A stretch of DNA of 64,000 nucleotides from Thermoplasmatota archaeon (lineage in GTDB: Archaea; Thermoplasmatota; E2; DHVEG-1), in NCBI GenBank assembly GCA_030619765.1, contig JAUXAU010000004.1, positions 5,717-69,716 of the forward strand, in the 5' to 3' direction. Positions 7,232 to 62,761 of the stretch are shown here, piece after piece. How positions within the stretch are numbered: the stretch's first letter is position 1; every line of letters starts with the position of its first letter. Position numbers and translations under genes: made by a program. The notes beneath the pieces were generated by a model that was given only the letters and a program-made list of their open reading frames with translations, did not search any database and was not told the origin of the DNA.

Positions 7232-7313
7232 GTAAAGAGAAGATTCTATTAATTGTAGTTGCTGAAAATGAAACTCGATTTTTGTTAATAATATTCTTCA
7301 AATCTAGAAAAAG

Positions 7314-7398
7314 TGCAGGGGACGAGATTTGAACTCGCGGACCTCTACAGGACAAGGCCCTCAACCTTGCGCCGTTGACCAGGCTTGGCTACCCCTGC
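7314..7398 (-). tRNA. tRNA-Leu(GAG), class II with a long variable arm
   Basis: Manual fold: acceptor GCAGGGG/CCCCTGC, anticodon stem CAAGG/CCTTG with loop TTGAGGG (anticodon GAG), T-arm GCGAG-TTCAAAT-CTCGT, 85 nt. Confidence 0.85.
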
Positions 7399-9123: not shown

Positions 9124-9197
9124 GGGCTTATGGTCTAGTGGTTATGACGTCGCCTTCACACGGCGGAGGTCGCCGGTTCAAATCCGGCTAAGCCCAT
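9124..9197 (+). tRNA. tRNA-Val(CAC)
   Basis: Manual fold: acceptor GGGCTTA/TAAGCCC, anticodon loop TTCACAC (CAC), T-arm GCCGG-TTCAAAT-CCGGC, 74 nt. Confidence 0.85.
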
Positions 9198-41565: not shown

Positions 41566-42681
41566 ATGACAGAAGGAAACGAAAAGAAAATACAAGATTA
41601 TTGTGAATATAGGCTTGATGAGGAGAGAGTGGAAGAGACCACAGTTAAACTCAACCGCCATATTTTAACTAAATTTGCAGAGACATTGGATAAACCCTTC
41701 AAAAAAGCTACTCACAAGGACATAAGGAAATTCTTAAATTCCTATGCAGATAGAACAAAAGATTTGTACATTATAGTTCTGCGGAGGTTTTATCGTTGGC
41801 TATTTAAAAGCGATGAGCTACCAGAATGCATCAAAGGCTTTAAATTGCAGAGTAAGAGGTCAAGGGCACAACAGGATAATGACATAACACGAAAGGAACG
41901 CATAGTTACTCCAGAAGAGTATGAAAAACTGCAATCTGTTACAAAAAATCCACAGTTTAAGGCAATTTTTGAAACATTATATCTATTCGGTTGTAGAATC
42001 TCCGAGCTTACGAGTATGAAAGCTACAGGTGTTGATGACGATGGAGAAATTGTAACGATAGACCTTAGAGACTCCAAGACAAAGCCCAGAGTGACAGGAA
42101 TTAATGTGCGTCCTAAGTATCTGCTTGACTGGTACAACACATATCAACCATACAAAGGTCAGAAAGACAAGCCGTTGTGGGTATCTAAGAAAGGCACACT
42201 TATAAATAAGGGAGTTGTCAACAGCGAATTAATGAGATTTAGCGATAAAGCAGAGATCGGCAGGAATATCTCCCCACACGACTTCCGACATACAGCAATC
42301 ACTAGAGCATTAGACAAGGGAATGCCGACAACGCATGTGGAAGAACTATATGGTTTTGAAACAGGCTCTGCTGTAATTTCTGTTTATGATCATAATGACC
42401 AAAAAAGTGCAATGCAGTATCTTAGAAGAGCACAGGTTAAGCAAAGACCTCCGAGCTACAAGGAATTAAAAAAGAAAGCAGACTTAATCGAAATACTGGA
42501 ACAAAAAGTAGCAACATTGACAGAGCAAGTGGATAAAATGACGAAGCATGAGACAGATGTCCAAAGTAAAACACTGATTCTCAAACCAGAAGATCATCAG
42601 GAGCTGCGGCTTTACCTCGACACTAAATCTTGGTTTAAAGAGGCAATCAAAGAAGCCGATAAAGCCGATCAAAAAAAGTGA
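41566..42681 (+). CDS. tyrosine-type site-specific recombinase/integrase
   Basis: 'RISELTSM', 'HDFRHTAITRAL', 'HVEELYGF' (R..H..R..Y catalytic tetrad order). Confidence 0.75.
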   Translation: MTEGNEKKIQDYCEYRLDEERVEETTVKLNRHILTKFAETLDKPFKKATHKDIRKFLNSYADRTKDLYIIVLRRFYRWLFKSDELPECIKGFKLQSKRSRAQQDNDITRKERIVTPEEYEKLQSVTKNPQFKAIFETLYLFGCRISELTSMKATGVDDDGEIVTIDLRDSKTKPRVTGINVRPKYLLDWYNTYQPYKGQKDKPLWVSKKGTLINKGVVNSELMRFSDKAEIGRNISPHDFRHTAITRALDKGMPTTHVEELYGFETGSAVISVYDHNDQKSAMQYLRRAQVKQRPPSYKELKKKADLIEILEQKVATLTEQVDKMTKHETDVQSKTLILKPEDHQELRLYLDTKSWFKEAIKEADKADQKK

Positions 42682-43281: not shown

Positions 43282-43947
43282 CACTTATCCTGTTGAACAG
43301 GGGCTTTGCACCTAAAGTCCATTTTGCACCTAAAGTCGAAATTTACAGGAGTGGTGTTTTACAAGAAGAATTTAAGATAAAGCTGATTATAGAATATTCA
43401 AATTTAATGGAATATTTTTATGAATAATTTTTTTGAAGATTTTGTTTTTCAATTAATCTTCATCTATGCCGTTAATGAATTCGAGGACTGTGTCGATGCT
43501 TTCGCTTATCTGTTCTGCGACTTCATCCTCAATTTCATCCAAACACAAATGCATTCACCTCCTGTAATATCATTCTTTTATTTATATAGCGGTGGGTCTA
43601 CCGCTCAAAAGAATTTACAATAAGTCTATCCCTCACTGTTCTCATTGAAAATTCTCTTTAAAAATAATAATATGATCAACTTATATATAAACTTTATTTT
43701 TATTAATAGTGAAAATAAATCTATTGTTTTATGTCTACTCTTAAAAAACGAATAAATTGAATCAAGCTCAGCAACCCAATAATAAGTGTTATCCCACCTT
43801 CTATCTGGTATCCTCTGACTATGAGTCCTATTCCTCCAAATGTAAAGAATCCAGCAATAGCACCTAAGATATATGTTAAAGGTCTCATATATGAGATAGA
43901 CAAATGGCTAAATACTAGATAAAAGATTTGACAATAGAGGAATATGT

Positions 43948-44517
43948 ATGGAACCCAAAGAAGTTGTTAGATATTTAACATCACTAATTGAAACAAGAAA
44001 GGAAATTTTTAAAATTGCCTATTGTAGGGGAAAGGATAAAGGAAAAAGAATAGAATCCTGGATTAACACAGAAATGTTGGCAAAACTGTTGGAATTAAAA
44101 GAAAAAAATGAAGTTGAAGAAGTTGAGGGGGAACATGTATATCATATTCCAAAGGGAACATCCCCAAGAAGAAGCTATGAGCATTGCGATTTATGGTGGT
44201 TCATTAATAATGAAGAACACTGGTTAGAAGTAAAAACCCTTGTATTCCACCGCAATTCTGATGGGTTAAAAGATAAATATAAAAAAAGAATCAAAAAGGA
44301 TTTGAATAAAGTTGATAGATTGAGACCACCATATAATTTCTATCACCTATTGATGATTTTTGATGATGAATATTACTATACGGGTGAATGGATGGAAGAT
44401 GTATATGCTATTTATCAAGATTACAAAATGAAGAAAGAAGATAAATGGAAATTTGATGTAAATCAAAGAAAAACAGTTTATGCATTTTTGCATTATAAAT
44501 CGGGAGATAATCAGTAA
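43948..44517 (+). CDS. hypothetical protein with a PD-(D/E)xK-like motif
   Basis: 'EHCDLWWF...EEHWLEVK' (D...ExK). Confidence 0.3.
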   Translation: MEPKEVVRYLTSLIETRKEIFKIAYCRGKDKGKRIESWINTEMLAKLLELKEKNEVEEVEGEHVYHIPKGTSPRRSYEHCDLWWFINNEEHWLEVKTLVFHRNSDGLKDKYKKRIKKDLNKVDRLRPPYNFYHLLMIFDDEYYYTGEWMEDVYAIYQDYKMKKEDKWKFDVNQRKTVYAFLHYKSGDNQ

Positions 44518-44583
44518 CGAATTGGATTTAAAAACTTGGTATCTTAAATAATAGATAAAAGATTTGAAAATGAGGGAGAAATT

Positions 44584-45117
44584 ATGAGCAGAAATTATGT
44601 AGAAGAACTCGTTTCAGAATATTATAAAATCCATGGCTATTTTGTGATGAATAATTATTGGTTTCCTTTTACTAGTGAAAGAAAAAGAATTGTAAAGGGA
44701 AAAAAACAAAAATTTACTGCTCAAAGTTGGACAGATATTGACATAGTTGCAATCAACTCAAAGGAGTTGCTACTTATTCAAACTAAGGCAATAATTAATA
44801 CAAAAAAAGTTGCAGAAAATATTATAAAATTTTTCAGGAGAGTAGATGCTTTCTTAGCTAAGGGTTTAGCTTTGGATCAAAAATCAGAAATCAAATGGTG
44901 GAAAAAGAAACGCACGATAAAAAGAATTGTTATATATGAGACTGGTATCCCAAGTTATAATCGTATTGTTGAAAATGCTGGAATTAAAACTATTGATTTT
45001 AAAGAGATCTTGGAGGACATCATTAAATATATTTCAAAGAAAAAAGGCGTTAAGGAAGGAAATCCGATCATGAGATTGATAACTTATTTAAACAACAAGA
45101 AAATCGTAAAGATATGA
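44584..45117 (+). CDS. Hjc/restriction-endonuclease-fold (PD-(D/E)xK) protein
   Basis: 'EELVSEYYKIHGYFV...TDIDIVAINSKELLLIQTK' resembles the Hjc E...D..(E/Q)xK core. Confidence 0.4.
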   Translation: MSRNYVEELVSEYYKIHGYFVMNNYWFPFTSERKRIVKGKKQKFTAQSWTDIDIVAINSKELLLIQTKAIINTKKVAENIIKFFRRVDAFLAKGLALDQKSEIKWWKKKRTIKRIVIYETGIPSYNRIVENAGIKTIDFKEILEDIIKYISKKKGVKEGNPIMRLITYLNNKKIVKI

Positions 45118-46387: not shown

Positions 46388-48868
46388 TTGGAGGATATAG
46401 GTTCATCAAAGAAATTAGGAGATTTTATCAATAATATTGAAAAATATAGGAGATTAAAACTTATTGGATTTGTTCTAACTCCCATAGTTATTGGCTTTTT
46501 TATTTTAAGATATTGCAATATTAAATTAAATGAACTAGAAAAAGAAATAAGAGTTGAAATACAACAAGAAATGGAAGAGATAAGAATCACACATAGAAAT
46601 GTTATAATAGATGATACTTACCTTATATATTCAAAAAGAACCGACCTTCTAAATTATTATGATGCTCGTATAAGATGGATAACCCAATTATCATCTTATA
46701 AAAATTGTTTTAGCTCCGGATTAATCGGGTTAATAGAGGAATCAGAGAAGGAAATAAGTTGTATTAGACTCAAAATAGATAATTTCAACAAAGAATTTGT
46801 CAAACGTAGAAAAAATGAATATCAATATTTGTTTGATAAAGTACCTTTTCCATTAGATGAAAATCAGAAAAATGCAATTATAATAGACGACAAACATAAT
46901 CTTGTTGTTGCAGGTGCAGGATCTGGTAAAACAGAAGTTCTCATCAACAGAATAGCTTATCTCATTGAAAGAAAACCTGATACAGTTAATCGTAAGAAAA
47001 TACTTGCTTTAGCCTTCCAGAGAGATGCAGCAAGACAAATGAAGAATAGATTGAAAGAAAGATATAATCTTGATGTTGAAATTCGAACTTTTCACTCTCT
47101 TGGACTTAATATTTTAAAAGAAATTGATGAGAGATATAAATTATATGGTGGGGATAATCATGAACAAAAATCTATTCAGCTTATATCAAAGTTAGTTAAC
47201 GATGCTAAAAAAGAAAGAGAGTTTCAGAACCATCTTATTAATTATATGAAATGGGTAGGAACATCAGAAAAGACAAAAGATGAAGCTGACTTTAAAGAAA
47301 AAGAAGAATTCTATGAATATATGAGAAATTTAGAACTGACTGCTTTAGATGAAACTAAAGTTAAAAGCCATGGAGAACTTGAAATTATTAATTTTTTCTT
47401 AACCAACAAAATAAACAATAAGAATATCAAGGTTTTATATGAAGACTATGCTGAATGGATGGAATATGAAGATCCGGATAAGTTAAAACATACTCCTCGT
47501 CCTGATTTTTATTTGCCTGATTACGATGTATATATTGAGCATTGGGCAATTGACGATGATGGAAGTACATGGGAAAATGATTATCTTCGTACAATGAAGA
47601 TTAAAAAGAAGAAGTTTGCAGAGCATAATAAAACATTGATTGAAACAACATATGGGGAATTCAAGAACAATAAAAACTTCATTGAATTATTAAAGGAACG
47701 ATTACTAAAAATATTACATGAGAAATATCCAGATAAAGATTTTACAATTACACCAATTGAATATGAAGAACTTGTTAAGAAGGTATGGGATGAGTGTAAA
47801 GTATACATTGATAATCTGCCAAAACACATAGCTAACTATATTAAAAATGCAAAAACCTATTATCTAACTCCAGAAAAAATAAGTGAGCGATTATCCAAAG
47901 AGAAGTGGAATAGAGAACAAATAACCTTCTCGCAAGTAGCTTTAAAAATCTACGAAGATTATCAGAATGAGCTCAAATCTTCAGGATATATTGATTTTGA
48001 AGATATGATAAATATTGCTATTGAAAGCTTAAAAAATAGCCCTGAATTATTAAAAGATAATTATGACCATATCCTTGTGGATGAATATCAGGACATTAGT
48101 CAGCAAAGATATGAATTAATAAAAACCATCGTGGAGAAGAATCAAAATTGTAAGTTGTTTTGCGTTGGTGATGATTGGCAGAGTATCATGAGTTTTGCAG
48201 GTTCAAATCCTGAATTTTTCATTAATTTTGATAAATATTTTGACCATCCTGCAAGAACTGATTTAACATTTAATTATCGAAGTATAAAATCAATCGTTGA
48301 AACTGGAAATGAAATAATCAAGTATAACGGTGACCAACAAATATCAAAAAAGGTCTATGCGAATAATGAGCAGATAGTACCTATTGATGTTTTTTATCTA
48401 ATGCATAAGGAAAATTATAAATGGAAATATTATAAACAGATGGTAGAGGACTGTATTGACCGTATTAAATACCATTTAGATAACGGATATGAATCCGAGG
48501 ACATTATGGTCTTAACTCGAATTACTAAAAATCCTATATATAAGGAATTTTTTTATGAGTATGTAAACAATAATAATATTTCATTTTCCTCGATACATAA
48601 GAGCAAGGGTTTACAATCAAAGATTGTCTTTTTACTTGATATGAAAGAAGGTGTGTATGGGTTCCCATGTCAACTTCATAATCCAGTAATATTTGAACCA
48701 GCTCGTATGGAGGTAATATCAGATAAGGTCGTTGAAGAAAGACGATTATTTTATGTTGCTGTTACACGAGCTAAAGAAAAACTATATGTTTACTCACAAA
48801 AATCTAATCCCAGCAGATTTTTATCTGAAATGGGAGAATATGTTAATCACCAGAATATTGGTTATTGA
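46388..48868 (+). CDS. UvrD/PcrA-like SF1 helicase with an N-terminal TM/coiled-coil region and a ~370-aa insertion carrying a nuclease-like motif
   Basis: Walker A 'VVAGAGSGKTEV', motif II 'ILVDEYQDIS', motif VI 'VAVTRAKEKLYVY'; insertion has 'PRPDFYLPDYDVYIEHW'. Confidence 0.75.
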   Translation: MEDIGSSKKLGDFINNIEKYRRLKLIGFVLTPIVIGFFILRYCNIKLNELEKEIRVEIQQEMEEIRITHRNVIIDDTYLIYSKRTDLLNYYDARIRWITQLSSYKNCFSSGLIGLIEESEKEISCIRLKIDNFNKEFVKRRKNEYQYLFDKVPFPLDENQKNAIIIDDKHNLVVAGAGSGKTEVLINRIAYLIERKPDTVNRKKILALAFQRDAARQMKNRLKERYNLDVEIRTFHSLGLNILKEIDERYKLYGGDNHEQKSIQLISKLVNDAKKEREFQNHLINYMKWVGTSEKTKDEADFKEKEEFYEYMRNLELTALDETKVKSHGELEIINFFLTNKINNKNIKVLYEDYAEWMEYEDPDKLKHTPRPDFYLPDYDVYIEHWAIDDDGSTWENDYLRTMKIKKKKFAEHNKTLIETTYGEFKNNKNFIELLKERLLKILHEKYPDKDFTITPIEYEELVKKVWDECKVYIDNLPKHIANYIKNAKTYYLTPEKISERLSKEKWNREQITFSQVALKIYEDYQNELKSSGYIDFEDMINIAIESLKNSPELLKDNYDHILVDEYQDISQQRYELIKTIVEKNQNCKLFCVGDDWQSIMSFAGSNPEFFINFDKYFDHPARTDLTFNYRSIKSIVETGNEIIKYNGDQQISKKVYANNEQIVPIDVFYLMHKENYKWKYYKQMVEDCIDRIKYHLDNGYESEDIMVLTRITKNPIYKEFFYEYVNNNNISFSSIHKSKGLQSKIVFLLDMKEGVYGFPCQLHNPVIFEPARMEVISDKVVEERRLFYVAVTRAKEKLYVYSQKSNPSRFLSEMGEYVNHQNIGY

Positions 48869-48943: not shown

Positions 48944-50380
48944 TTAATTCTCGGAATATTTTTCGATTTTCTTTAAATCTTTGATTTCAATGTATTTATT
49001 TTTATCAGAACTTGCATCATTGTATTTCATGCCAGTAGCAAATCCAAAATTAAATAGTAAATCTTCTATCTTGCCGTGATAATGGCTATAAGCATTTAAA
49101 CTTCTATGTGTTTTTAGTTCTTGTTTTAGTTTATTATCAAGTTTTTCTATCAATTTATCCTTTTCTTTGGTTGGTATTGCTCTAAACATTAAAATCAATT
49201 TCTTGATTGATTCGATTTGTTCCGCATGATAGGAGTGAATAGCAATTAAACCTAATTCGTGATAATAAATTCGGTTGTCCGGTAAATCAGACATTAAATA
49301 AACTAAGAATTTGAAGAATTTAAGATTACCCCATACCCAAGTGATATTTACTAATCCAGTTGTATAAATTGAACGTAGTCTAGATACATCTGTAGTTGAG
49401 GTTTTAACCAACTCATATCCAAGAGCTGTTATTTTATATTCACTTCTGTTATATTTTTGTATTAGTCCTAATCGTTCTAAATAATTCTTATGTTGACGAA
49501 TAAACCAATCTCTTTTTTGTTCTTCTGTATATCTATGTTTATATGTTATACCTGCCTGTTTTATTATAGAATTGACGTATCTAATGTCTTTTCGACTCGT
49601 TGAGAATGATGCATATCCGTCACTTTTGTATTCTTTACTTTTGATAATTAATTCTATAATTTTTCGTAGTTCCTTTAATTTATCTGTATTAATTATTCCA
49701 TGTCCTGGTAATAAATACCAACCACGCCATTTTTCCAAATTTACAATTTTTTTATTACTTTTAATATATTTTATCCAATCATCTACAAATGTGAGGATTG
49801 TTTTACTATTCTCACCGAAATTATAGGTTCCATCCTCCTTATATTTGATTTTAATATGTTTGGTTTTCTCAACATCTTTGTAATTGTCAATATATTCATC
49901 ATCAATCAATAAAGATTTTTCACTTTCCCATAATTTCCTAAAATATTTTATTTGCTGTTTAATGATCGTGGTTTTTCCCTTAATTATAATGTTTGCTTCA
50001 ATGTTTTTTTCTAATGCACCTTTACTTATATTTGATGATCCAGTAATGGTAATTATATTTGGTTTGGAATGAAATATCCATAATTTTGGATGATATGTTT
50101 TTTGTGGATCTCGATATACTTTGAGTATCACGCCCATCTTCAATAATTCTCTAAGAGCAGTACTCTCAGAGATATTCATATCTTCTCCAAATAATAATTC
50201 AATTTTTCCTCCATCCTGAATAAACTTTTGAAATGTAGGCTTTAAATAATCAACACCAGACCTCCTGACAAATGAAATTCCCATTTGAACCTTTTTCAGA
50301 TTTTCTATTTCAAAGCAATCTATGATTGCTTTTAATGTTGTTTGCCCATTGTCGTTAAAAACAAATACTAAATCCTTCAC
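48944..50380 (-). CDS. PLD-family (Nuc/BfiI-like) nuclease-domain protein
   Basis: 'YHPKLWIFHSKPNIITITGSSNISKGAL' is a degenerate HxK..D..GSxN motif; convergent with the helicase. Confidence 0.45.
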   Translation of the reverse strand: MKDLVFVFNDNGQTTLKAIIDCFEIENLKKVQMGISFVRRSGVDYLKPTFQKFIQDGGKIELLFGEDMNISESTALRELLKMGVILKVYRDPQKTYHPKLWIFHSKPNIITITGSSNISKGALEKNIEANIIIKGKTTIIKQQIKYFRKLWESEKSLLIDDEYIDNYKDVEKTKHIKIKYKEDGTYNFGENSKTILTFVDDWIKYIKSNKKIVNLEKWRGWYLLPGHGIINTDKLKELRKIIELIIKSKEYKSDGYASFSTSRKDIRYVNSIIKQAGITYKHRYTEEQKRDWFIRQHKNYLERLGLIQKYNRSEYKITALGYELVKTSTTDVSRLRSIYTTGLVNITWVWGNLKFFKFLVYLMSDLPDNRIYYHELGLIAIHSYHAEQIESIKKLILMFRAIPTKEKDKLIEKLDNKLKQELKTHRSLNAYSHYHGKIEDLLFNFGFATGMKYNDASSDKNKYIEIKDLKKIEKYSEN

Positions 50381-50578: not shown

Positions 50579-51007
50579 TTATGACCAAACTCCTTTTCTT
50601 TTTGATAAAGAAATCAGGATTTCAATATCTTTGTCATCAATTTCAAGGATATATCCATTCATATGTTTACTCGCTTTTAATAATTTGGAAGAAATGTTTG
50701 GATGTTGTTTTACTAATTTCAACGGAACTGGATTTTCTAATAGACATGTATTTGACAAATCAATTATATATTTTTTACCATTATCATATACTTCAGAAGT
50801 CACGATAGATTTGGCTACAAATGCAGATTTAAACATTTTTACTAGAGTGTTTTCTTTTTTAAGATAATGGAAAATAATGTCACCTTTTTCCACTCGGCTC
50901 ATTATATAAAAAATCTTTTTATTTCGAAATGATATTAAATCTTCCTTACCTTCTAGCTTTTTCTCCAGAGAATCTGTGCCACATTTAACTTCAATCCAAG
51001 TTGTCAT
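50579..51007 (-). CDS. EVE/PUA-like domain protein
   Basis: About 140 aa; 'W...VKCG...GDIIFHY...VAKSIVTSEVYD' pattern resembles an EVE domain. Confidence 0.3.
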   Translation of the reverse strand: MTTWIEVKCGTDSLEKKLEGKEDLISFRNKKIFYIMSRVEKGDIIFHYLKKENTLVKMFKSAFVAKSIVTSEVYDNGKKYIIDLSNTCLLENPVPLKLVKQHPNISSKLLKASKHMNGYILEIDDKDIEILISLSKRKGVWS

Positions 51008-52203: not shown

Positions 52204-53148
52204 ATGGTCAATGAAACGATCATATCCGCAAACAATAATTATTCTGAAGAAAAAGAAATAGGCGAAAATAGAGTTGATCCAAGAAATAAACTAAATGAAT
52301 TAAACGGTAGAAACTGGATTAAAGCAACAAAAAGCATATGGTATAGCAGACCCCCTCGACGGGACGAACTAAAAGAACAACATCCTGCCACATACGCAGA
52401 AAGTGATATTGAGCAATTGATTAAATTTTTTACAAAAGAGGGACAAACTGTATTAGATCCTTTTCTTGGATCTGGTAGCACCTTAATTGCTTGTCACGAT
52501 ACTAAAAGATTTGGAACAGGAATTGAACTCATTGACAAATGGGTTGAAATTTCACAGGAAAGAGTTAAGCAAGTTGAAACTCAGAAGACATTAGATTCAT
52601 TTGCCATAGAGCAAGAAACAACTCAAAAAATCATTCATGGTGATGCTGAAGGGGAATTGAAAAAAATAGAATCAGAATATTTTCATTTCATTGTTACCAG
52701 TCCGCCATATTGGGGGATTTTAAATAAACCACTGGATCATAAGACAAAAAAAGAAAGAGTTGGGAAGGGTTTAGATGTTAGATATAGTGAAGATGAAAAA
52801 GATTTAGCTAATGTTGAGAAGTATTCAGATTTTTTAAAAGCATTACAAAAAACCTGGAAAGCATGCTATAGAGTTTTGAAGAAAAATAAGTACATGTGTA
52901 TAGTAGTTTCTGATTTCAGGCATAAAAATAGATTTATTCTTTATCATGCTGATATTACAAAATCTATGGAAGAAATTGGATTTATTCTAAAGGGAATGAT
53001 AATTTTAGTTCAGGACAGCAAAACACTCTATCCTTATGGGTATCCTTTTGAATATGTGCCAAACATCCATCACCAAAATATTTTAATCTTTAAAAAGGAT
53101 GAAAATAATGAAAAATTAAAGGATATTTCAAATGGTAAGAGAGGGTGA
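52204..53148 (+). CDS. DNA N4-cytosine/N6-adenine methyltransferase
   Basis: Motif I 'LDPFLGSGSTL', motif IV 'VTSPPYWG'. Confidence 0.75.
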   Translation: MVNETIISANNNYSEEKEIGENRVDPRNKLNELNGRNWIKATKSIWYSRPPRRDELKEQHPATYAESDIEQLIKFFTKEGQTVLDPFLGSGSTLIACHDTKRFGTGIELIDKWVEISQERVKQVETQKTLDSFAIEQETTQKIIHGDAEGELKKIESEYFHFIVTSPPYWGILNKPLDHKTKKERVGKGLDVRYSEDEKDLANVEKYSDFLKALQKTWKACYRVLKKNKYMCIVVSDFRHKNRFILYHADITKSMEEIGFILKGMIILVQDSKTLYPYGYPFEYVPNIHHQNILIFKKDENNEKLKDISNGKRG

Positions 53149-54694
53149 AGTTTGTTGCGGTGTTGTTAAATGGCTTGTTTCTAAGCAACAAGAACTAGAT
53201 CGAGAAACAGGTAATAAAAAACATCTAGCTTTTTGGGCAGATAAAAAAACCTTTGATGGAATAAAGAGGCATTTAGGGATTTCAAGTACTTCTAATTTAG
53301 ACCATACAAAAACTTCAATCTCTAACAATTTCAATGTCGATTCAGACCTACTGGAGAGGTGTTGGCTTGAAATTGAAGATATTAGGATCCCTTATTCTAC
53401 TTCAAGTGATGTTCTGCCAGATTTTGTGGCTCATATATTTGACACATCTTCAAATATTTCAGAGACATGGGCTATTGAGGCAAAACCTAATGATATAGCC
53501 TCCATTCAAAGAGGTTATTTCCAAGTAATTTCTCATGCATTAGGTGTTTCAAAATCATACATTGCCATTCCTAGTGATTTAGAGGAGGCTGTTAAAAATC
53601 TTTACTATTACAATTATGGTATATTATTATATGATCCCACAAATCATACAATTGAAGAAAAATCAAAGCAAATCATTACAAGAGCCAATCCAGAAATTAT
53701 GGGCTACCTAACTAATTATCTGAGAGATTATCATTTTAAGAATCCGTCACATTTTCAAAGTCCATATGGCATTCCTTTTAGAGTTTCAAGAATATCTATT
53801 AGTGCTCGGGACAGCCTTTTGGTGTTAGCATTAAAACTATATTTTGATCATAATACGGATAATATTACCAACAGGGAGCCAAAAATTTTTGATTTGAAAA
53901 GAATGAGTTTTATTGATAAAAATGAGAACATAACTGATGATGCAAAATTCTTTTTTGAGATACTAGAAAAATATATCGAAGAGAAAATTACTTATCGACC
54001 AAGGGGAAGAACAAGAGCAATAGTAAATTATTTTATTAATAGCATTCCTTCTGTACAAGGAATGAATTTATTATATGAGGGGAATCCTTTTGGAAATTTT
54101 GTTTCGAATATTTTACACATGTTCTTAATATCGAACAATAGCTTGAAAGAATTAATTGGATGGATTAAACAAGCGACAGAAGAATCTGGAGGGGAGCACC
54201 CTATTTTTTCACATGTATTTACTATAGGGCTTAAAAGAAACCCCCTTTTACTTAGAGATATGATGCTTTCTCCTCATTTAAACACTACCACTCCTACATT
54301 CCATAATCCTCTAACAAGAGGAGGGAATGTTTGTGTAAATTGTGATCATCAGGATAAGAAAGGATTTTGCTTTTGTACAAATATTAGTTTAGTAAATCAT
54401 GTTGATTTTCAGAAGAAATATGGTGATTTCATTGAGATCTGGAGAAAACATGTACCTTATGAGTTCTTTACTGATCCTGCCTTACACAAACGATTTATTA
54501 AAATTCATACTTATTCAAATGGAAGAGAAGTTGAAATATTAGCTCCAGGATTTGTCAAATGTCTGATTCATACTGATACAAATAAAACAACAGGTATACT
54601 AAGACATTCTAAAATCCTAGGTAAAGATGTTAGAAGCGGTATAAAAGCAGAGCTTTGCACTAGATTTGATCCTTATTATTTAGAAACCACATAG
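53132..54694 (+). CDS. large hypothetical protein, translationally coupled to the MTase; PD-ExK-like motif and a C-terminal Cys cluster
   Basis: 'LPDFVAHIF...ETWAIEAK'; 'CVNCDHQDKKGFCFC'; ATG overlaps the MTase stop. Confidence 0.3.
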   Translation: MVREGEVCCGVVKWLVSKQQELDRETGNKKHLAFWADKKTFDGIKRHLGISSTSNLDHTKTSISNNFNVDSDLLERCWLEIEDIRIPYSTSSDVLPDFVAHIFDTSSNISETWAIEAKPNDIASIQRGYFQVISHALGVSKSYIAIPSDLEEAVKNLYYYNYGILLYDPTNHTIEEKSKQIITRANPEIMGYLTNYLRDYHFKNPSHFQSPYGIPFRVSRISISARDSLLVLALKLYFDHNTDNITNREPKIFDLKRMSFIDKNENITDDAKFFFEILEKYIEEKITYRPRGRTRAIVNYFINSIPSVQGMNLLYEGNPFGNFVSNILHMFLISNNSLKELIGWIKQATEESGGEHPIFSHVFTIGLKRNPLLLRDMMLSPHLNTTTPTFHNPLTRGGNVCVNCDHQDKKGFCFCTNISLVNHVDFQKKYGDFIEIWRKHVPYEFFTDPALHKRFIKIHTYSNGREVEILAPGFVKCLIHTDTNKTTGILRHSKILGKDVRSGIKAELCTRFDPYYLETT

Positions 54695-55180: not shown

Positions 55181-55903
55181 TTAAAAAATTATGATTTGAA
55201 GTACAACCGGTGTAAGGCATCTCATAGCACTTTCATAAGCCTGAATATTTACATCAGATGACGTAAGTGGAAATTTTTCCTCCAATCTTTGATGATGTTC
55301 CTCTCCGATTTTCTCAATAATACTCTTGAGTTCTATACTTGATATACCAATGAGATTCTTTCCCCCAAAAAAAGAAATCATTACGTTTGTATTTTTCATT
55401 TTTTTTATTTTTGAAAGGTCTATCTCTTTAAAAGTTCCATCTCTATAAACGAAATGTTCAGAATTTGCATCCTCTAATACGTCTCTGCTCACTTGAGAAA
55501 ATTTCTTTATAAAATCTATATAAAATATTTTGTTTATTTTATATACAGGGGATTTCTTTAAACGTTCTTTTCTAAGGAATTCGATTTTATAATGTGTCAT
55601 CTTATTTAGAAGCTTGAGCATCTGCCTTTTTGAAGAGATGCTATTTGGATTAATTCTACCATCATCGATTAATTTCTTCAATCTCTCACGATTCTTTGAA
55701 TTTTTAAAAAATTCTATAGTTCGGTTCCAAAGTTTTAATTGTGATTGATTATCATTGTATATCAATTTATTAATATCTTTATCCTTGACCATAATCTGTT
55801 CAATTATTGCTGAAGTTAATGACGTATCATGAAATTCTTCAAAAAGGTGAAATAAGTCTTTATAATATGGTTTTGTCATTATATTCTTTTTTGTTATTGT
55901 CAT
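55181..55903 (-). CDS. hypothetical protein
   Basis: ORF track. Confidence 0.35.
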   Translation of the reverse strand: MTITKKNIMTKPYYKDLFHLFEEFHDTSLTSAIIEQIMVKDKDINKLIYNDNQSQLKLWNRTIEFFKNSKNRERLKKLIDDGRINPNSISSKRQMLKLLNKMTHYKIEFLRKERLKKSPVYKINKIFYIDFIKKFSQVSRDVLEDANSEHFVYRDGTFKEIDLSKIKKMKNTNVMISFFGGKNLIGISSIELKSIIEKIGEEHHQRLEEKFPLTSSDVNIQAYESAMRCLTPVVLQIIIF

Positions 55904-56003
55904 ATAAATTAAGATATATGGTGACCATTATTTATTTATTTTGGTGTTTTTTAGTCACTAAATTTAAAATATAATTAATTCATATTAGTATTTATTGATT
56001 AAC

Positions 56004-56123
56004 ATGAAAAAAAGAGTTGTATTCACCGTCGATAAAAAAAATCTTGAACAACTCGATGGAAAAAGAGGGCTAATACCACGTAGCACTTATGTAAATTACC
56101 TTATCGAAGAGCACTGCAAATAG
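56004..56123 (+). CDS. 39-aa ribbon-helix-helix (CopG/Arc-like) DNA-binding protein
   Basis: MKKRVVFTVDKKNLEQLDGKRGLIPRSTYVNYLIEEHCK has a beta-strand then two helices in the RHH pattern; not in the ORF track. Confidence 0.4.
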   Translation: MKKRVVFTVDKKNLEQLDGKRGLIPRSTYVNYLIEEHCK

Positions 56124-56169
56124 AATTAAACGAATAATTTGAGGAATTATCGAATGACTGGAAACACTT

Positions 56170-56358
56170 TGTACGCACAAAAAGTCCAAAAGTACCTTTT
56201 TAGTACGCAAATCCCTCCTATAAGAGTAAGTAACGTAGTAAATAACCTATATTATATACGTATTATTTACTTAAAGTTCCTTACTACATTCTTTACTATC
56301 CCTCCCTATATCTGCGTACAACCAAACGCCTTTTTAGAAAATCATGCGTACAACCATT
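56170..56358. promoter_or_regulatory. iteron-like repeat set: two direct TTGTACGCA-like sites and two inverted TGCGTACAACCA sites
   Basis: gtacgca at 56172 and 56204; tgcgtacaacca at 56303 and 56336; spacing of about 32 nt within each pair. Confidence 0.45.
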
Positions 56359-56374
56359 TTGTACAGGGGGTACT

Positions 56375-57136
56375 GTGAGCATCTACACCTATTTTACAGA
56401 TACAATAATACATACGATATTCCCAGACGTAAAGAGAGTTCGTCCCCTAAACCCAAAGGCTAATGCCACTCTGCTATACACAGAGGAACTAAAACAAATC
56501 ATTTACATCAGGGAGAGCAAGAATAAACAAGCATTGAGGATAAGGGATTTACGGAAGTACAATGAAAGGGCAGTCAGGAACATGAGACAGCTTATGAAAA
56601 ACAAATTTGGTAAAAAGAGGGGGATCAAATTATATAATGAAGCAGACAAGATCAATGTTCTTGTAGTGGAGAGAACACTCAATACCATATGGAGATTGCA
56701 TAGAGCGTTAAACCGCCTAGATAATTCCGCGACATACAACAAAAAAACGATTCATATGATATTTGACAAGACAAAAACAAAAATCCCAGAAGAGAAGATG
56801 GCATCGCTTATCTATAAAAGCTTGTACACTAAATTTGACCGATACAAGGAAAACATAGAAACCAGCATGAAAAAGAAAAACAAGGGCAAGGATAAAGACA
56901 AGCAGATAAAGCCATTCAATGAACTAAAAGAAAAGCTCGAATCCTTAGACTGGACAGTGAGAATGCTAAATCATGAATACTGCAAACTTGCAGGAAAGAC
57001 ACTGATCCCCAGAAAGCTAAAGTCAGAGATAGACTTTGAGATGGAGAGACTACATAAAGCCAGTATAATCAAGAACGATAAAAGCTCAATTAAGTATGAT
57101 AAAGAACCCTATAAAGCGAATACGGAGGTACAATAA
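56375..57136 (+). CDS. hypothetical basic protein downstream of the RHH/iteron module
   Basis: ORF track; K/R-rich; start uncertain. Confidence 0.4.
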   Translation: MSIYTYFTDTIIHTIFPDVKRVRPLNPKANATLLYTEELKQIIYIRESKNKQALRIRDLRKYNERAVRNMRQLMKNKFGKKRGIKLYNEADKINVLVVERTLNTIWRLHRALNRLDNSATYNKKTIHMIFDKTKTKIPEEKMASLIYKSLYTKFDRYKENIETSMKKKNKGKDKDKQIKPFNELKEKLESLDWTVRMLNHEYCKLAGKTLIPRKLKSEIDFEMERLHKASIIKNDKSSIKYDKEPYKANTEVQ

Positions 57137-57551
57137 GAAAATGACACCCAACCAACAATGGAATAACGACCATACAGCCCTTATCACAGCCTCTACGCTG
57201 CAAACACAGACACCCAAATCCCACACATCAAAGACCGACAACACCCCTCAAAACATGCTACAGAGAATCTTGTTAAAACAATATGAGTATGGTTTCAAAG
57301 ATGAACATTGGAGAGGAGAGAAAAAATCATTCGATTTGATAAAAAAAATTGAAAGGATAAAAAGAAAATTCAAAATATCGATTCTGTTTTGTACAGAATG
57401 TCCAATATTACTTTAAGCATTATAAGGAGAAAATAGAGAAAAATGCAATACTTTTCAATACTCTATAAAAATGTCCTAAAAGTGTCCTAAAAGTGTCATG
57501 TTTTTTAAGAATTAATGGAATTTTCGGAGTCTATAAAAAAGAGATGTTTAT

Positions 57552-57990: not shown

Positions 57991-58158
57991 ATGGCACTAC
58001 AAGGTAAGGGCACTATTTATCAGCACGTTAAGGGTAAGATGTATGTTTATATTCCATCTGTTGTCCGTGATGACAGTCAGTTTCCTTTTAACCGTGGGGA
58101 AAAAGTGAACGTTAGTATCCATGGAAATAGGCTAATTGTAGAAAAAGAAAAATCTTAA
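57991..58158 (+). CDS. 55-aa AbrB/SpoVT/MazE-like small protein
   Basis: 'GKMYVYIPSVVRDDSQFPFNRGEKVNVSIHGNRLIVEK' fits the swapped-hairpin pattern; not in the ORF track. Confidence 0.3.
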   Translation: MALQGKGTIYQHVKGKMYVYIPSVVRDDSQFPFNRGEKVNVSIHGNRLIVEKEKS

Positions 58159-58413
58159 TAATTTTTAGACAACCATTTTAATTCTAATGAACAATGTCCA
58201 ATAAGTATCAAAATCACAATCAGTTTTCTCAGTATGTGCTTGTATAAAAGATCATTGAAATTACTCCTGTTGAATAGGAGGTAGAAAGCAGGTTTTTTAA
58301 AGAAAAAGATGGTTATTCAATATTAATCACATATTTTCCGGAATATCATCTGAACTTATAATAGATACTTTGCAATCATCGCATATCCCATTGGAATTAT
58401 TAAAGTCTATTAT

Positions 58414-59235
58414 TTATGATTTTACCAGTTCACGTAACAAGATTTTATCCTTCTCTGAATTCAATGCATGCATTTTTCTATGACAATTTGGGCAAAGGGC
58501 AACAGTATTATCGATTGCATCATCCCCACCCTGTGACAACCATTGAATATGATGACTCTCGAGAAAGGGTTCACCGTCTTTTTTGCTGAAAGGAGCAGCA
58601 TTCTTGCATAATTGACAAAAACCGTTTGCTCTACGTTTGACAAATTCTACAACATCTTGATTTCTATCGTATTGTTTGGAAATAACGTGTCGGACTCCAC
58701 ATGTTCTAGGTGCAGACTGGACTTTTTTCCATAATGATTCGTCTGATGATTTTTTTGCTTGTCTCTCTCTTATAGTTAGTTTTCTATGAAAAACGTCTTC
58801 AGTAATAATTGAGGATGTTGTATGGTCAATAAGTTTTAATGGAAAAATCCACACTTTGCGAATGTATTGTTTTACATCTGGTTGTTTTTCAACATAAGGT
58901 TTAGTAGCCAACATGACCCTACCTTGATAAACATATCTACCTGGGTCAAAAACCTCAAATAAAAATACATCCACTCCGTTAGTTTGAGATTCATTTAATG
59001 TTCTGTTTTGTGCAAAAGAGAGACTTTGGTCACCTGTAAGTCCCATACCTGTATAATGAAAAACATCATTCTCCCATCTATCCTCATAAATAGATTTAGT
59101 ATGATCTGAAACAATGACAAGACAGTTTTTTCTTCTACTTCTTCTCATCCCTCCTTGTGGACTACATTTGAATATCCGACAAATATCATCATTTCTTAGT
59201 ATATCACCTTGTTTTAGTTCAGGGTCAAACTCCAT
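58414..59235 (-). CDS. SRA-like domain + HNH endonuclease (candidate modification-dependent type IV restriction enzyme)
   Basis: C-terminal 'CQLCKNAAPF...ESHHIQWLSQGGDDAIDNTVALCPNCHRKMH'; N-terminal 'HYTGMGLTGDQ...AQNRTLNESQTNG...GRYVYQGRV' parallels SRA 'TYTGSGGRD...TAEQ..KLTNTN...YDGIYKV'. Confidence 0.5.
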   Translation of the reverse strand: MEFDPELKQGDILRNDDICRIFKCSPQGGMRRSRRKNCLVIVSDHTKSIYEDRWENDVFHYTGMGLTGDQSLSFAQNRTLNESQTNGVDVFLFEVFDPGRYVYQGRVMLATKPYVEKQPDVKQYIRKVWIFPLKLIDHTTSSIITEDVFHRKLTIRERQAKKSSDESLWKKVQSAPRTCGVRHVISKQYDRNQDVVEFVKRRANGFCQLCKNAAPFSKKDGEPFLESHHIQWLSQGGDDAIDNTVALCPNCHRKMHALNSEKDKILLRELVKS

Positions 59236-59328
59236 TCTATATTTCCTCCTCCAAATCTACAATTTTGTAATAATTCCTACTTTAAAAACAATTACACCGT
59301 TATTTAATTACAACTATTTTGAAAACAG

Positions 59329-61233: not shown

Positions 61234-61627
61234 TCTCCATTTGATATTCTTTCATCGTGTAAGACAGCCCATAAATAAGATGGACCTCTCACTATCTGGG
61301 AAATCTGACCAGGTCCACTAATGGGCAACAGTTTAGAGGCTTTCTTAATATCAACCTTCGATATAGCGTATTCAGTTCTACTTGGAATAAACATGTTTCC
61401 TACTATCTTATATGTAAATGGTAATCCCCTTTTTGTGAAAAACTCTTCTCCAGCATGTTCTATAATTCGACCCCATACCTCTTCAAAAGATGTATTTGAT
61501 ATGCTAATACCTCCTTTTTATTCTCATTATCTAAATGTACATTTTTAAATAATTTTCGTTCGCATTACTGATATATAACAATATATATACAATCTAACCT
61601 ACAAATATATATAAAACTTGAAATCAA

Positions 61628-61735
61628 TCACATATTTGGTAGAATATCATCATCACTAATTATTGAAACCTTACAATCATCACAAATCCCGTCAGGGTTA
61701 TCTGTTTCGTTTGTGCCACATATTTTGCAGATCAT
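61628..61735 (-). CDS. 35-aa zinc-ribbon mini-protein MICKICGTNETDNPDGICDDCKVSIISDDDILPNM
   Basis: Found by hand; CxxC-x10-CxxC; degraded paralogous copies at 58327..58413 and 55011..55115. Confidence 0.35.
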   Translation of the reverse strand: MICKICGTNETDNPDGICDDCKVSIISDDDILPNM

Positions 61736-61748
61736 ATTTAACCAAAAA

Positions 61749-62720
61749 CTAGTCTAATTTTCCTATATACTTTTTAGTAGCCTTCTCTAAACTAATCATA
61801 GCATCTATCATTTTATCTTGTATATCGTCCCATCTGTCTTCATCTTTTAATCCTATTTCATCAAATGTATAAGAAATTCTTGATGCCTTCCTATCATCAA
61901 GCTTCTCCCACAGTAGTTTTTCACCAAATTCTTTTTCAATTTCTCCCTTATGTTTAAACAGTCGATCAAATCTTTTTTTATTAATTAAGACATCCTCGTC
62001 CTCTTTTCCTTTATCAAGATAGATCTCAACTCTCCCATTCTTATACGTTACTTCATAAATATATGCAATTCCTGATTTACCTGCTCCTGTTGCTATCCAA
62101 GAATATTTACTTGGGGAAACATTAGAAAACAAATTAGTTTTATCTTTAGATTTCGTTAATAATTTTGTCCAGAAATCTTTTCTAAGTTTATATCTTTGTG
62201 CAGATTCTATCCTCTCTTCACCAAGTTGTTTTGCTTCAATAGTTGGACCGGTTACAATAGTAAATAGAGGTGCAGCTATCGGTTGATCTCCGATTTTAAT
62301 TGCCTCAAGTTTAACCAAATAAAATAATACGTCTCCAGGAGTATATTTGTTTAACCATTCAATAACCTGAACATGTTCATCTCTTGGTTCTTTTGTAATC
62401 CATATTGCAGTGTTTGCTTCGAGATTTATCATGTATGTAAGTATCTTTCCTAAATGATCATGATCTGTTTTTTCTAACTGATTCTCGATTATTACTTTAT
62501 TGTCATTTTCATCCTCAGCAAAAAGGTCTAATTTAAAAGGACCAACCTTTTCCTCTCTTTTAACAACGTTAAAATTTTTGTCAAGGACATCGTTAAGATA
62601 ATCAATATTTTCTTCTAACCATTTTGTAAATTCCTTATCTTCCTTTTTCCAAATTTCTCTTAAAGGAACTTTCTTGATTTTTCCAATTGGATTTTCAAAT
62701 TCCATTTCTTCCTCCTCCAA
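61749..62720 (-). CDS. PD-(D/E)xK-family (DUF4268-like) nuclease-fold protein
   Basis: 'FKLDLFAEDENDNKVIIENQLEKTDHDHLGK' (D..E.Q...D..HLG signature). Confidence 0.45.
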   Translation of the reverse strand: MEEEEMEFENPIGKIKKVPLREIWKKEDKEFTKWLEENIDYLNDVLDKNFNVVKREEKVGPFKLDLFAEDENDNKVIIENQLEKTDHDHLGKILTYMINLEANTAIWITKEPRDEHVQVIEWLNKYTPGDVLFYLVKLEAIKIGDQPIAAPLFTIVTGPTIEAKQLGEERIESAQRYKLRKDFWTKLLTKSKDKTNLFSNVSPSKYSWIATGAGKSGIAYIYEVTYKNGRVEIYLDKGKEDEDVLINKKRFDRLFKHKGEIEKEFGEKLLWEKLDDRKASRISYTFDEIGLKDEDRWDDIQDKMIDAMISLEKATKKYIGKLD

Positions 62721-62761
62721 ATCTACAATTTCATTTTAACTATCAGGATGGTTATTCATGT

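Follow-up and report, generated by a model that had tools for sequence, protein, structure and literature searches.

What does a short repeat array do in front of the gene for a small basic protein in the genome of an uncultured Thermoplasmatota archaeon? The locus in question lies in 64,000 nt of contig JAUXAU010000004.1 (assembly GCA_030619765.1), hereafter called the window, and comprises a 39-aa open reading frame (ORF; 56004–56123), a cluster of repeats and the gene for a 253-aa protein (56375–57136). Both ORFs exist as described in the original prediction, which was made from the letters alone and which proposed a ribbon-helix-helix (RHH) mini-regulator followed by an iteron-like array and a basic protein gene, as in replication or partition modules or in toxin-antitoxin operators. 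Our results tentatively suggest that this module is an iteron-type replication origin together with a new, autoregulated initiator, carried by an integrative element of the archaeon. This is the explanation that we prefer, with some reservation.

The repeats are real and non-random. The 9-mer TTGTACGCA is present in three exact copies in the 64 kb, compared to 0.14 expected, and all of them are located inside 185 nt. At least three exact copies were obtained in 0 of 100 shuffles, while four sites within 200 nt were obtained in none of 200 dinucleotide shuffles of the window, whose maximum was two. Together with one near and one degenerate copy, these form a cluster of five iterons within 200 nt. 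The first of the two copies predicted to be direct (iteron 1, 56169–56177, + strand) is indeed an exact TTGTACGCA; the second (iteron 2, 56201–56209, + strand) turned out to be TAGTACGCA, with one mismatch. The two inverted copies are exact and extend to the 12-mer TGCGTACAACCA, found exactly twice, at 56313 and at 56345. Thus, iteron 3 (56313–56324; 9-mer 56313–56321) and iteron 4 (56345–56356; 9-mer 56345–56353) read TGCGTACAACCA on the + strand, which corresponds to TTGTACGCA on the − strand. The spacing, predicted to be about 32 nt, is exactly 32 nt from start to start in both pairs. Iteron 5 (56359–56367, + strand) is a degenerate TTGTACAGG that overlaps the Shine-Dalgarno (SD) sequence AGGGGGT (56365–56371) of the 253-aa protein gene. 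Note that iterons 4 and 5 form a head-to-head inverted repeat directly before this SD and the GTG start codon; iteron 5 is a candidate autoregulatory site.

Between the two convergent iteron pairs lies an AT-rich core (56225–56297), accompanied by two C-rich boxes ATCCCTCC in the same orientation (56211–56218 and 56298–56305, + strand), the first being the counterpart of a CCCCNNNACCCCC box present in relatives. The core is an imperfect palindrome with arms of 34 nt (56225–56258 and 56264–56297) that match at 71%, and its motifs are ordered AGTAAG, a AGTAAATAA / TTATTTACT centre, and CTTACT/TTTACT. The region is 77% AT (56221–56299) and belongs to the 1% least stable 79-nt stretches of the window. 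We therefore propose it as a candidate unwinding element.

We compared the window with the DNA of ten related loci (L001, L002, L003, L005, L006, L007, L008, L066, L085 and L090). The iteron array is placed directly upstream of the family gene in eight of them, with a length of 250–550 nt in most. The other two are L005, which has a single inverted pair upstream of the gene, and L008, whose upstream flank is incomplete and which showed a different direct repeat and nothing else. When their central parts were aligned, the window, L001, L003, L006, L085 and L090 revealed a shared order: iteron, C-rich box (ATCCCTCC or CCCCNNNACCCCC), AGTAAG, AT-rich stretch, TTCCTTACTA-like motif and inverted iteron, followed by a terminal inverted repeat, SD and gene. 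In the window and in L003 (1617–1657), the terminal inverted iteron repeat stands directly before ACAGGGGGT and the start codon. The predicted resemblance to replication or maintenance modules, an iteron-like array beside a basic protein gene, was borne out by this recurrent layout and by the mobile-element setting described below.

The iterons themselves vary among the relatives. L001, the closest one (40% protein identity), has a 33-mer, TTTGTGACTGTATAACAGGAGGGATAGTAAA, three times in direct orientation and twice as an inverted partial copy, and these surround the same AGTAAATAA / TTATTTACT centre as in the window. The loci with short family proteins (L002, L003, L006, L007, L066, L085 and L090) carry 5–8 copies of TGTCAGGTT in both orientations, a sequence almost absent from the rest of their contigs. 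Three specificity classes were thus sampled: TTGTACGCA in the window, TTGTGACTG in L001 and TGTCAGGTT in the short subfamily. As to the conservation of the repeats in related genomes, which the original prediction had presupposed, the array layout and the core are kept, the latter down to about 24% protein identity, and the iteron sequence changes by subfamily. A core that is conserved beside an iteron that varies with the subfamily would be expected if the iteron is recognised by the protein and the core is recognised or melted by something that the loci have in common. A scan of IMG/VR with an iteron triple pattern gave 18 loci, all unrelated and mostly tandem-repeat or repeat-protein coding arrays that lack the family gene, and a pattern specific for the window core had no match in the scan. 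Of the 71 loci obtained in a two-iteron scan of metagenomes and genomes, just L066, L085 and L090 carry the family gene; L085 and L090 belong to Thermoplasmatota and Thermoplasmatales metagenome-assembled genomes (MAGs).

In all nine loci analyzed for this feature (the window and eight relatives), the array lies inside a stop-free frame on the gene strand (window 56130–56378; L001 2–304; L002 5825–6310; L003 1365–1667; L006 890–1390; L007 2–352; L066 1–255; L085 746–1501; L090 7210–7770). Summed over these loci, this leader frame contains 0 stops, compared to 98 and 105 in the other two frames (0 versus 8 and 4 in the window alone). Tested against dinucleotide shuffles, the openness of the frame reached significance in every locus (P=0.018 in the window and for the most part under 0.001 in the relatives), and nothing unusual was seen on the opposite strand. 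The frame runs into the family gene by 4 nt (ATGA/GTGA) or 17 nt; in L002, which has lost the start codon of this gene, it stops just upstream of it. In the window, the leader has 74 codons (56154–56378, + strand), preceded by the SD GAGGA (56141–56145); it starts with the ATG at 56154 and stops with a TGA (56376–56378) that overlaps the GTG of the 253-aa protein gene as GTGA. Note that in L002 (6307–6320) the start position of the family gene is ACG, not ATG, and the ATG that the leader TGA overlaps is out of frame; a pseudogene, a sequencing error or an unusual initiation may account for this copy.

Such a frame, with 74 codons here and 150–250 in the relatives, could simply be a true repeat-protein gene, the DNA repeats being a by-product of repeats in the peptide. 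The lack of stops in every locus would be explained in this way, as would the SD and ATG found in the window and the fact that public gene callers call the frame in L001, L002 and L006. However, the substitutions do not behave as those of a coding sequence. Between L006 and L007 they are distributed evenly over the codon positions of the leader (8/10/9; 4 synonymous, 20 non-synonymous), compared to 22/19/46 in the adjacent family gene (34 synonymous to 39 non-synonymous). Divergent pairs gave the same result, with a flat leader (about 0.36/0.37/0.44) and a family gene at 0.30/0.23/0.52. Moreover, one and the same iteron appears in two reading frames and in inverted orientation (IVRF, LSGF, NLT), the leader peptides have no family match, and there is no relation between those of the window and L001, in spite of the 40% identity of the proteins encoded next to them. 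The leader frame evolves like non-coding DNA, and we consider a repeat-protein gene very improbable.

Since the frame is open yet unconstrained, its simplest reading is that ribosomes must cross the array: the leader would be translated and coupled to the downstream start, the peptide itself being irrelevant. If the leader is translated, then the array is transcribed from upstream and the five sites lie inside the transcription unit. A programmed frameshift from the leader into the gene was also considered and rejected, since the relative frame differs by subfamily (+1 versus +2) and the frame of the gene is not open immediately before its start codon.

The protein encoded next to the array is basic, as predicted (isoelectric point (pI) 9.93), and so are nearly all members of its family (pI 9.5–10.7). 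Among 5.8 billion clustered proteins it has 1 homologue, with 40% identity, while a profile search of 1.84 billion representatives gave 16 family proteins, 8 of them below 1e-30. Where the hosts are named, they are Thermoplasmatota archaea. Two subfamilies can be distinguished, one long (about 225–260 aa), which includes the window protein, and one short (about 150–200 aa). The original prediction had proposed a homology search against Rep and partition proteins. In this search, neither the protein nor the family alignment had a meaningful match in Pfam, PHROGs, NCBIfam, PADLOC or the PDB sequences, and PF25227, PF02486 and PF01719 did not match either. No HUH motif or invariant tyrosine is present in the family: H127 and Y147/Y151 are confined to the long subfamily and replaced in the short one. 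Since the protein failed in every known initiator family tested, we see the module as built on an undescribed protein family.

AlphaFold, run with the 16-sequence alignment, produced a confident model (pLDDT 84.8, pTM 0.76). It has an alpha/beta N-terminal domain (residues 1–131; helix, three strands, long helices, strand, helix, strand) and a C-terminal part of three long helices (139–228) that ends in a disordered tail. The order of the secondary structure elements in the N-terminal domain agrees with the alpha-beta-beta-beta-alpha-beta core of the restriction-endonuclease-like fold. The top Foldseek matches in the PDB, all of them non-significant (E at least 0.02, TM 0.2–0.3), were the PD-(D/E)xK proteins Shedu, HamA, NucS/EndoMS, Can2 and Cap4, and no Rep protein was among the matches. 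In BFVD there was one significant match, the unnamed 254-aa viral protein K9MCT3 (E 9e-5, TM 0.49), whose accession gave no result in a literature search. In the alignment, 90% conservation is reached only by F130 and I146.

Another possibility could be that the module serves site-specific DNA processing. The N-terminal domain would then be a nuclease, still active or active until recently, or an accessory factor of recombination, that nicks or resolves the DNA at the core or helps in excision or packaging, and the repeats would be arm-type sites. That the leading weak PDB matches are nearly all PD-(D/E)xK nucleases agrees with this idea, as do the PD motif P17-D18, mostly conserved in the alignment, the integrases that accompany the module and the palindromic core. 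However, these structural matches are non-significant, and the alignment contains neither a conserved catalytic D...(D/E)xK nor a second acidic residue. Moreover, the palindrome matches at 71% over 34 nt, and the site cannot be attP, since it is found uninterrupted and internal in the integrated element. For the same reasons, an imperfect palindrome that is intact in the integrated state, a telomere-resolution site was also rejected. We regard a DNA-processing function as improbable. The model would rather correspond to a degenerate nuclease fold that serves in DNA binding, with the helices as a putative dimerisation bundle, and the 253-aa protein is our candidate for the iteron-binding initiator. 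Note that in the predicted disordered tail, residues 236–253 (57080–57133) contain the motif K-[FYW]-x-K-E-P-Y-[KQ]-x-[DN]-x-[EG]-[VI]-[QT]-COOH, common to family members P0004, P0008 and P0011 and found in no other members; this peptide may serve for docking to a host factor.

The order of the ORFs corresponds to a four-ORF operon layout, from about 55.97 to 57.42 kb on the + strand. A TATA-box-like sequence, TTTAAAATATAA (55963–55974), lies upstream of the 39-aa ORF, with its end 30 nt from the ATG, and is a candidate archaeal promoter for the operon. Its 5' side is abutted by a perfect 13-bp palindrome, TTTAGTCACTAAA (55950–55962), located between the 39-aa ORF and a divergent gene for a 240-aa protein (55181–55903, − strand), and the least stable 79-nt stretch of the 55.9–57.5 kb region starts at 55926. 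The 39-aa ORF runs from the ATG at 56004 to the TAG at 56123, encodes a basic product (pI 9.6) and has no gene call in the NCBI record. After an interval of 251 nt, filled by the repeat region, comes the gene of the 253-aa protein (56375–57136), and 4 nt further a 91-aa ORF (57141–57416; SD GGAGGT, 57124–57129), which is called in the NCBI record and whose product matched no known family and no toxin family in the family searches. Rfam at relaxed thresholds gave no non-coding RNA here, and the RNA fold of 56125–56400 was unremarkable (z = −1.8). Two side observations concern the end of the operon: TTTTGTACAG, at 57387–57396 near the end of the 91-aa ORF, is a copy of 56357–66, which overlaps iteron 5, and a tandem repeat of two GTCCTAAAAGT units (57473–57496) is found just past the last ORF.

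Is the 39-aa ORF the RHH protein that pairs with the repeats, as originally predicted? The label found little backing. No RHH match was obtained in Pfam even at E 10, a search for homologues was empty, and the NCBIfam match to NF050104, a MazE-family antitoxin, was sub-threshold (E 0.008, 16.5 bits, cut-off 65). The single-sequence AlphaFold2 model, of low confidence (pLDDT 66), has an extended segment (1–10) and two helices (11–19 and 26–38), and gave no Foldseek match. An RHH nature is weakly supported by these results; we consider it plausible and unproven. The proposed pairing with the repeats also failed, since among the relatives a true RHH_1 gene is found upstream only in L003, about 1 kb from the array, and the RHH gene is not therefore a constant partner of it. 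The RHH_1 protein of L003 has no BLASTP similarity to the 39-aa ORF, no RHH_1 gene is directly upstream in L002, L006, L085 or L090, and the small upstream genes of the other relatives differ, being AbrB/MazE-like or of no recognised family. The constant partner of the array is the gene of the 253-aa protein family. If the 39-aa ORF encodes a CopG-like repressor, the palindrome at 55950–55962 is a better operator candidate than the iterons; we propose it as a likely operator and as a candidate site for the RHH-like protein.

The sub-threshold antitoxin match, together with the defence-island surroundings, is what remains in favour of the toxin-antitoxin operator suggested by the original prediction, in which the 39-aa antitoxin would bind the repeats and the 253-aa protein would be the toxin. 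This cassette was rejected: the 253-aa protein has no match to a toxin family in Pfam, NCBIfam or PADLOC-type models, and the two genes are kept apart by 251 nt that contain another open frame. In addition, the match is far under its cut-off, the operator would sit downstream of the antitoxin gene, and the relatives keep the array and the gene with no adjacent RHH. We give this explanation hardly any probability.

The surroundings of the module are those of a mobile element in an archaeal genome. The archaeal genes of the window include those for archaeosine tRNA transglycosylase, RtcB, FtsZ and a non-discriminating aspartyl-tRNA synthetase, and this FtsZ belongs to a 90%-identity cluster with a protein from a "Thermoplasmatales archaeon" MAG. 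A gene for a tyrosine recombinase/integrase of 371 aa (41566–42681, + strand; XerA-like, E 4e-29) is followed, about 1.3 kb later, by a low-GC stretch (about 44–56 kb; GC 0.29–0.32 compared to about 0.35). This stretch is rich in defence genes, and the module is located after it. These defence-type cargo genes encode a UvrD/GajB-like helicase (46388–48868), a PLD/DrmC-like nuclease (48944–50380, − strand), an EVE-domain protein (50579–51007, − strand) and a Type II N4/N6 methylase (52204–53148), which is overlapped by a 520-aa ORF (53132–54694) that probably encodes its endonuclease partner. The integrase likely marks the left end of an integrated element that carries the module. In L002, an integrase gene lies 0.9 kb downstream of the module and a Type ISP restriction enzyme adjoins it; the integrases of the window and L002 have no detectable relatedness. 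Since integrases and defence cargo are found near the module, we propose that small integrative elements are the vehicles of the family, and in these elements no further gene recognisable as a replication gene was found.

Some additional observations were made in this neighbourhood. A small gene for a protein of the AbrB/MazE fold lies downstream of the module in the window (57991–58158; a weak match, E 0.11) and in L002 (7190–7402; PF04014, E 1e-5), in the latter between the family gene and the integrase gene. A membrane protein of 233–238 aa (54% identity) is encoded within about 2 kb of the module in L005 (57–758) and L085 (3768–4484), which may indicate that these loci share their integration neighbourhood or that the gene is a conserved cargo. 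Further downstream in the window, an HNH endonuclease gene (58414–59235, − strand) and a DUF4268/NucS-like gene (61749–62720, − strand) have an identical 23-nt 5' leader with SD, AAATTGTAGATTTGGAGGAGGAA on the − strand (59243–59265 and 62709–62731), and a common 3' flank of 79 nt with 73% identity (58322–58400 and 61623–61701). On the − strand, this flank encodes the C-terminus of a small CxxC...CxxC peptide, MICKICGTNETDNPDGICDDCKVSIISDDDILPNM after the DUF4268 gene and a truncated copy after the HNH gene; from their sequence, the two neighbourhoods look like shuffled cassettes. Closer to the integrase gene, a 42-nt promoter/SD-like segment is present twice (43909–43950 and 44545–44586; 79% identity) ahead of consecutive ORFs of 189 and 177 aa, whose products have no detectable mutual similarity and no family match. 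Finally, ARAGORN predicted an 86-nt tRNA-Leu(GAG) at 7313–7398 (− strand), while Rfam at its gathering threshold reported only a tRNA-Val at 9124–9196.

How does the module compare with known replicons? As occurs with the bacterial iteron theta replicons (pPS10 RepA, F RepE, R6K pi and P1 RepA; reviewed in PMC4980987), it combines a cluster of short repeats that would be specific to the product of the adjacent gene, an AT-rich and easily melted segment beside the repeats, an inverted repeat copy that is placed at the 5' end of the gene and would suit autorepression, and a basic protein of about 25–30 kDa. Unlike in those replicons, the protein lacks the winged-helix Rep_3 fold and signature, the iterons converge on both sides of the AT-rich core instead of forming one tandem block, the host is archaeal, and the array is inside a frame that appears to be translated.

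The copG-repB operon of pMV158 is an RHH-regulated replication operon. Such RHH-plus-Rep operons are an established plasmid theme, of which the Sulfolobus pRN1 orf56/orf904 pair is an example (PMC4234260). The true RHH_1 gene upstream of the array in L003 is in line with this theme. As in pMV158 and pRN1, a very small gene, here putatively of the RHH type, comes first and a candidate replication gene after it, and the palindrome at 55950–55962 would correspond to the one found at the promoter of RHH-regulated replication operons. In contrast, the window protein is unrelated to RepB (HUH) or to ORF904 (prim-pol/SF3 helicase), and its repeat array is located between the two genes.

The likeness extends to the lambda origin, where iterons and an AT-rich region lie inside gene O, a coding sequence under protein-level selection. 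As in lambda, the iterons and the AT-rich region of the window are within an open frame, next to or within the coding region of the (here candidate) initiator. Unlike in lambda, this frame is a separate leader with no protein-level constraint, which the overlapping stop and start couple to the candidate initiator gene. In archaeal chromosomal origins, Orc1/Cdc6 binds to origin recognition box (ORB) elements, which contain a G-string and are placed in inverted orientation on both sides of a duplex-unwinding element. The layout of the window resembles these origins in that inverted elements flank an AT-rich core and in that a G/C-rich box (GGAGGGAT, GGGGGNNNGGGG in relatives) adjoins each inner repeat. 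It differs from them in that the module has no Orc1/Cdc6 gene and that the repeat varies with the adjacent protein, not with the host.

Finally, the archaea-specific Rep-Arvir/DUF7845 proteins have recently been recognised as candidate initiators that are encoded on integrative elements beside their DNA element, and in SNJ2 the element has to be excised before the replication operon is restored (PMC13107129). A similar geometry is conceivable here, with the integrase at the left end and the module towards the right. However, Rep-Arvir proteins have a TBP-like/Rep_trans fold, a winged helix-turn-helix (wHTH), an invariant catalytic tyrosine and a hairpin DNA element (PMC13107129), while the 253-aa protein does not match PF25227, has a different predicted fold and no invariant tyrosine, and stands beside an iteron array instead of a hairpin.

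We infer that the protein binds DNA, that the array acts as an origin, that the module regulates itself and that the RHH-like ORF has a part in this, and propose the following mechanism. The 253-aa protein would bind the 9-mer iterons, probably as a dimer formed through its C-terminal helical bundle, with two iterons on each side of the conserved AT-rich core and both pairs facing it. The complex would open the core and recruit the host replisome after the element has been excised as a circle. Binding at the last inverted iteron pair, which abuts the SD, would repress the synthesis of the 253-aa protein itself, while the RHH-like protein would more likely act at the palindrome of the operon promoter, in the manner of the CopG-type repressors. 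The leader frame would be translated but unconstrained in sequence, and would physically hold the repeat array.

Several results weigh against an origin with its initiator. No experimental or sequence link connects the 253-aa protein to any known initiator: signatures of Rep_3, HUH, Rep_trans, DUF7845, prim-pol, MCM and Orc1 are all missing from it, and a restriction-endonuclease-like fold with a helical bundle is not one known for theta-type initiators. The iteron spacing differs among relatives. No circular contig was found among the related loci, so autonomous replication was never seen, and no convincing direct repeats that could serve as att sites were found between the integrase end and 57–64 kb. 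Moreover, the family was found in neither IMG/VR, PLSDB nor INPHARED; tblastn gave nothing credible in the last two, and peptide-pattern scans for further relatives in genomes, IMG/VR and metagenomes gave nothing.

Centromeres and complex operators would equally account for repeats arranged around an AT-rich promoter, and this leads to the alternative of a module for maintenance or regulation that has no origin function. The protein would coat the array as a centromere-like or partition adaptor, as a silencer or activator in a switch of the immunity or lysogeny type, or as an autoregulator. In parC/ParR-type centromeres and complex operators, repeats likewise flank an AT-rich, promoter-like core upstream of the gene of the binding protein. 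TATA-like runs are present in the core, the protein has no known initiator domain, the open frame indicates an array that is transcribed and translated through, which would suit an operator or a roadblock, and small AbrB/MazE-like and RHH regulators are encoded beside the gene in several loci. However, an easily melted and conserved core, convergent iterons and a C/G-rich box exceed the needs of a simple operator, and the small elements show no other replication function. The classical partition system, one of the possibilities named in the original prediction, was not supported: no NTPase gene of the ParA, ParM or TubZ type is present among the ORFs of 54.7–58.2 kb or in the related loci. We consider a purely regulatory or maintenance role rather unlikely, though it deserves to be taken seriously.

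To our knowledge, almost nothing is known about the replication of mobile elements in uncultured Thermoplasmatota, which are abundant archaea, and few genetic tools exist for this phylum. If the iteron-type origin and initiator that we favour are real, the module, which in about 1.4 kb would combine an origin with one small protein, could be considered as a minimal replicon for shuttle vectors, and a new fold would join those of the replication initiators. More speculatively, and in our opinion doubtful at present, the 253-aa protein could found a new class of archaeal initiators, built on a catalytically dead restriction-endonuclease-like fold and limited to the integrative elements of Thermoplasmatota; its origin, made of subfamily-specific iterons on both sides of the conserved core, would lie inside a long leader that must be translated, whatever its peptide, and that is translationally coupled to the initiator gene, a coupling that would link ribosome traffic, origin occupancy and initiator synthesis. 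A leader that is free of stops and behaves as non-coding DNA points to an unusual coupling of translation with an element acting at the DNA level. If the module is instead a regulator or a centromere, it would nonetheless provide a new family of DNA-binding proteins together with their cognate sites.

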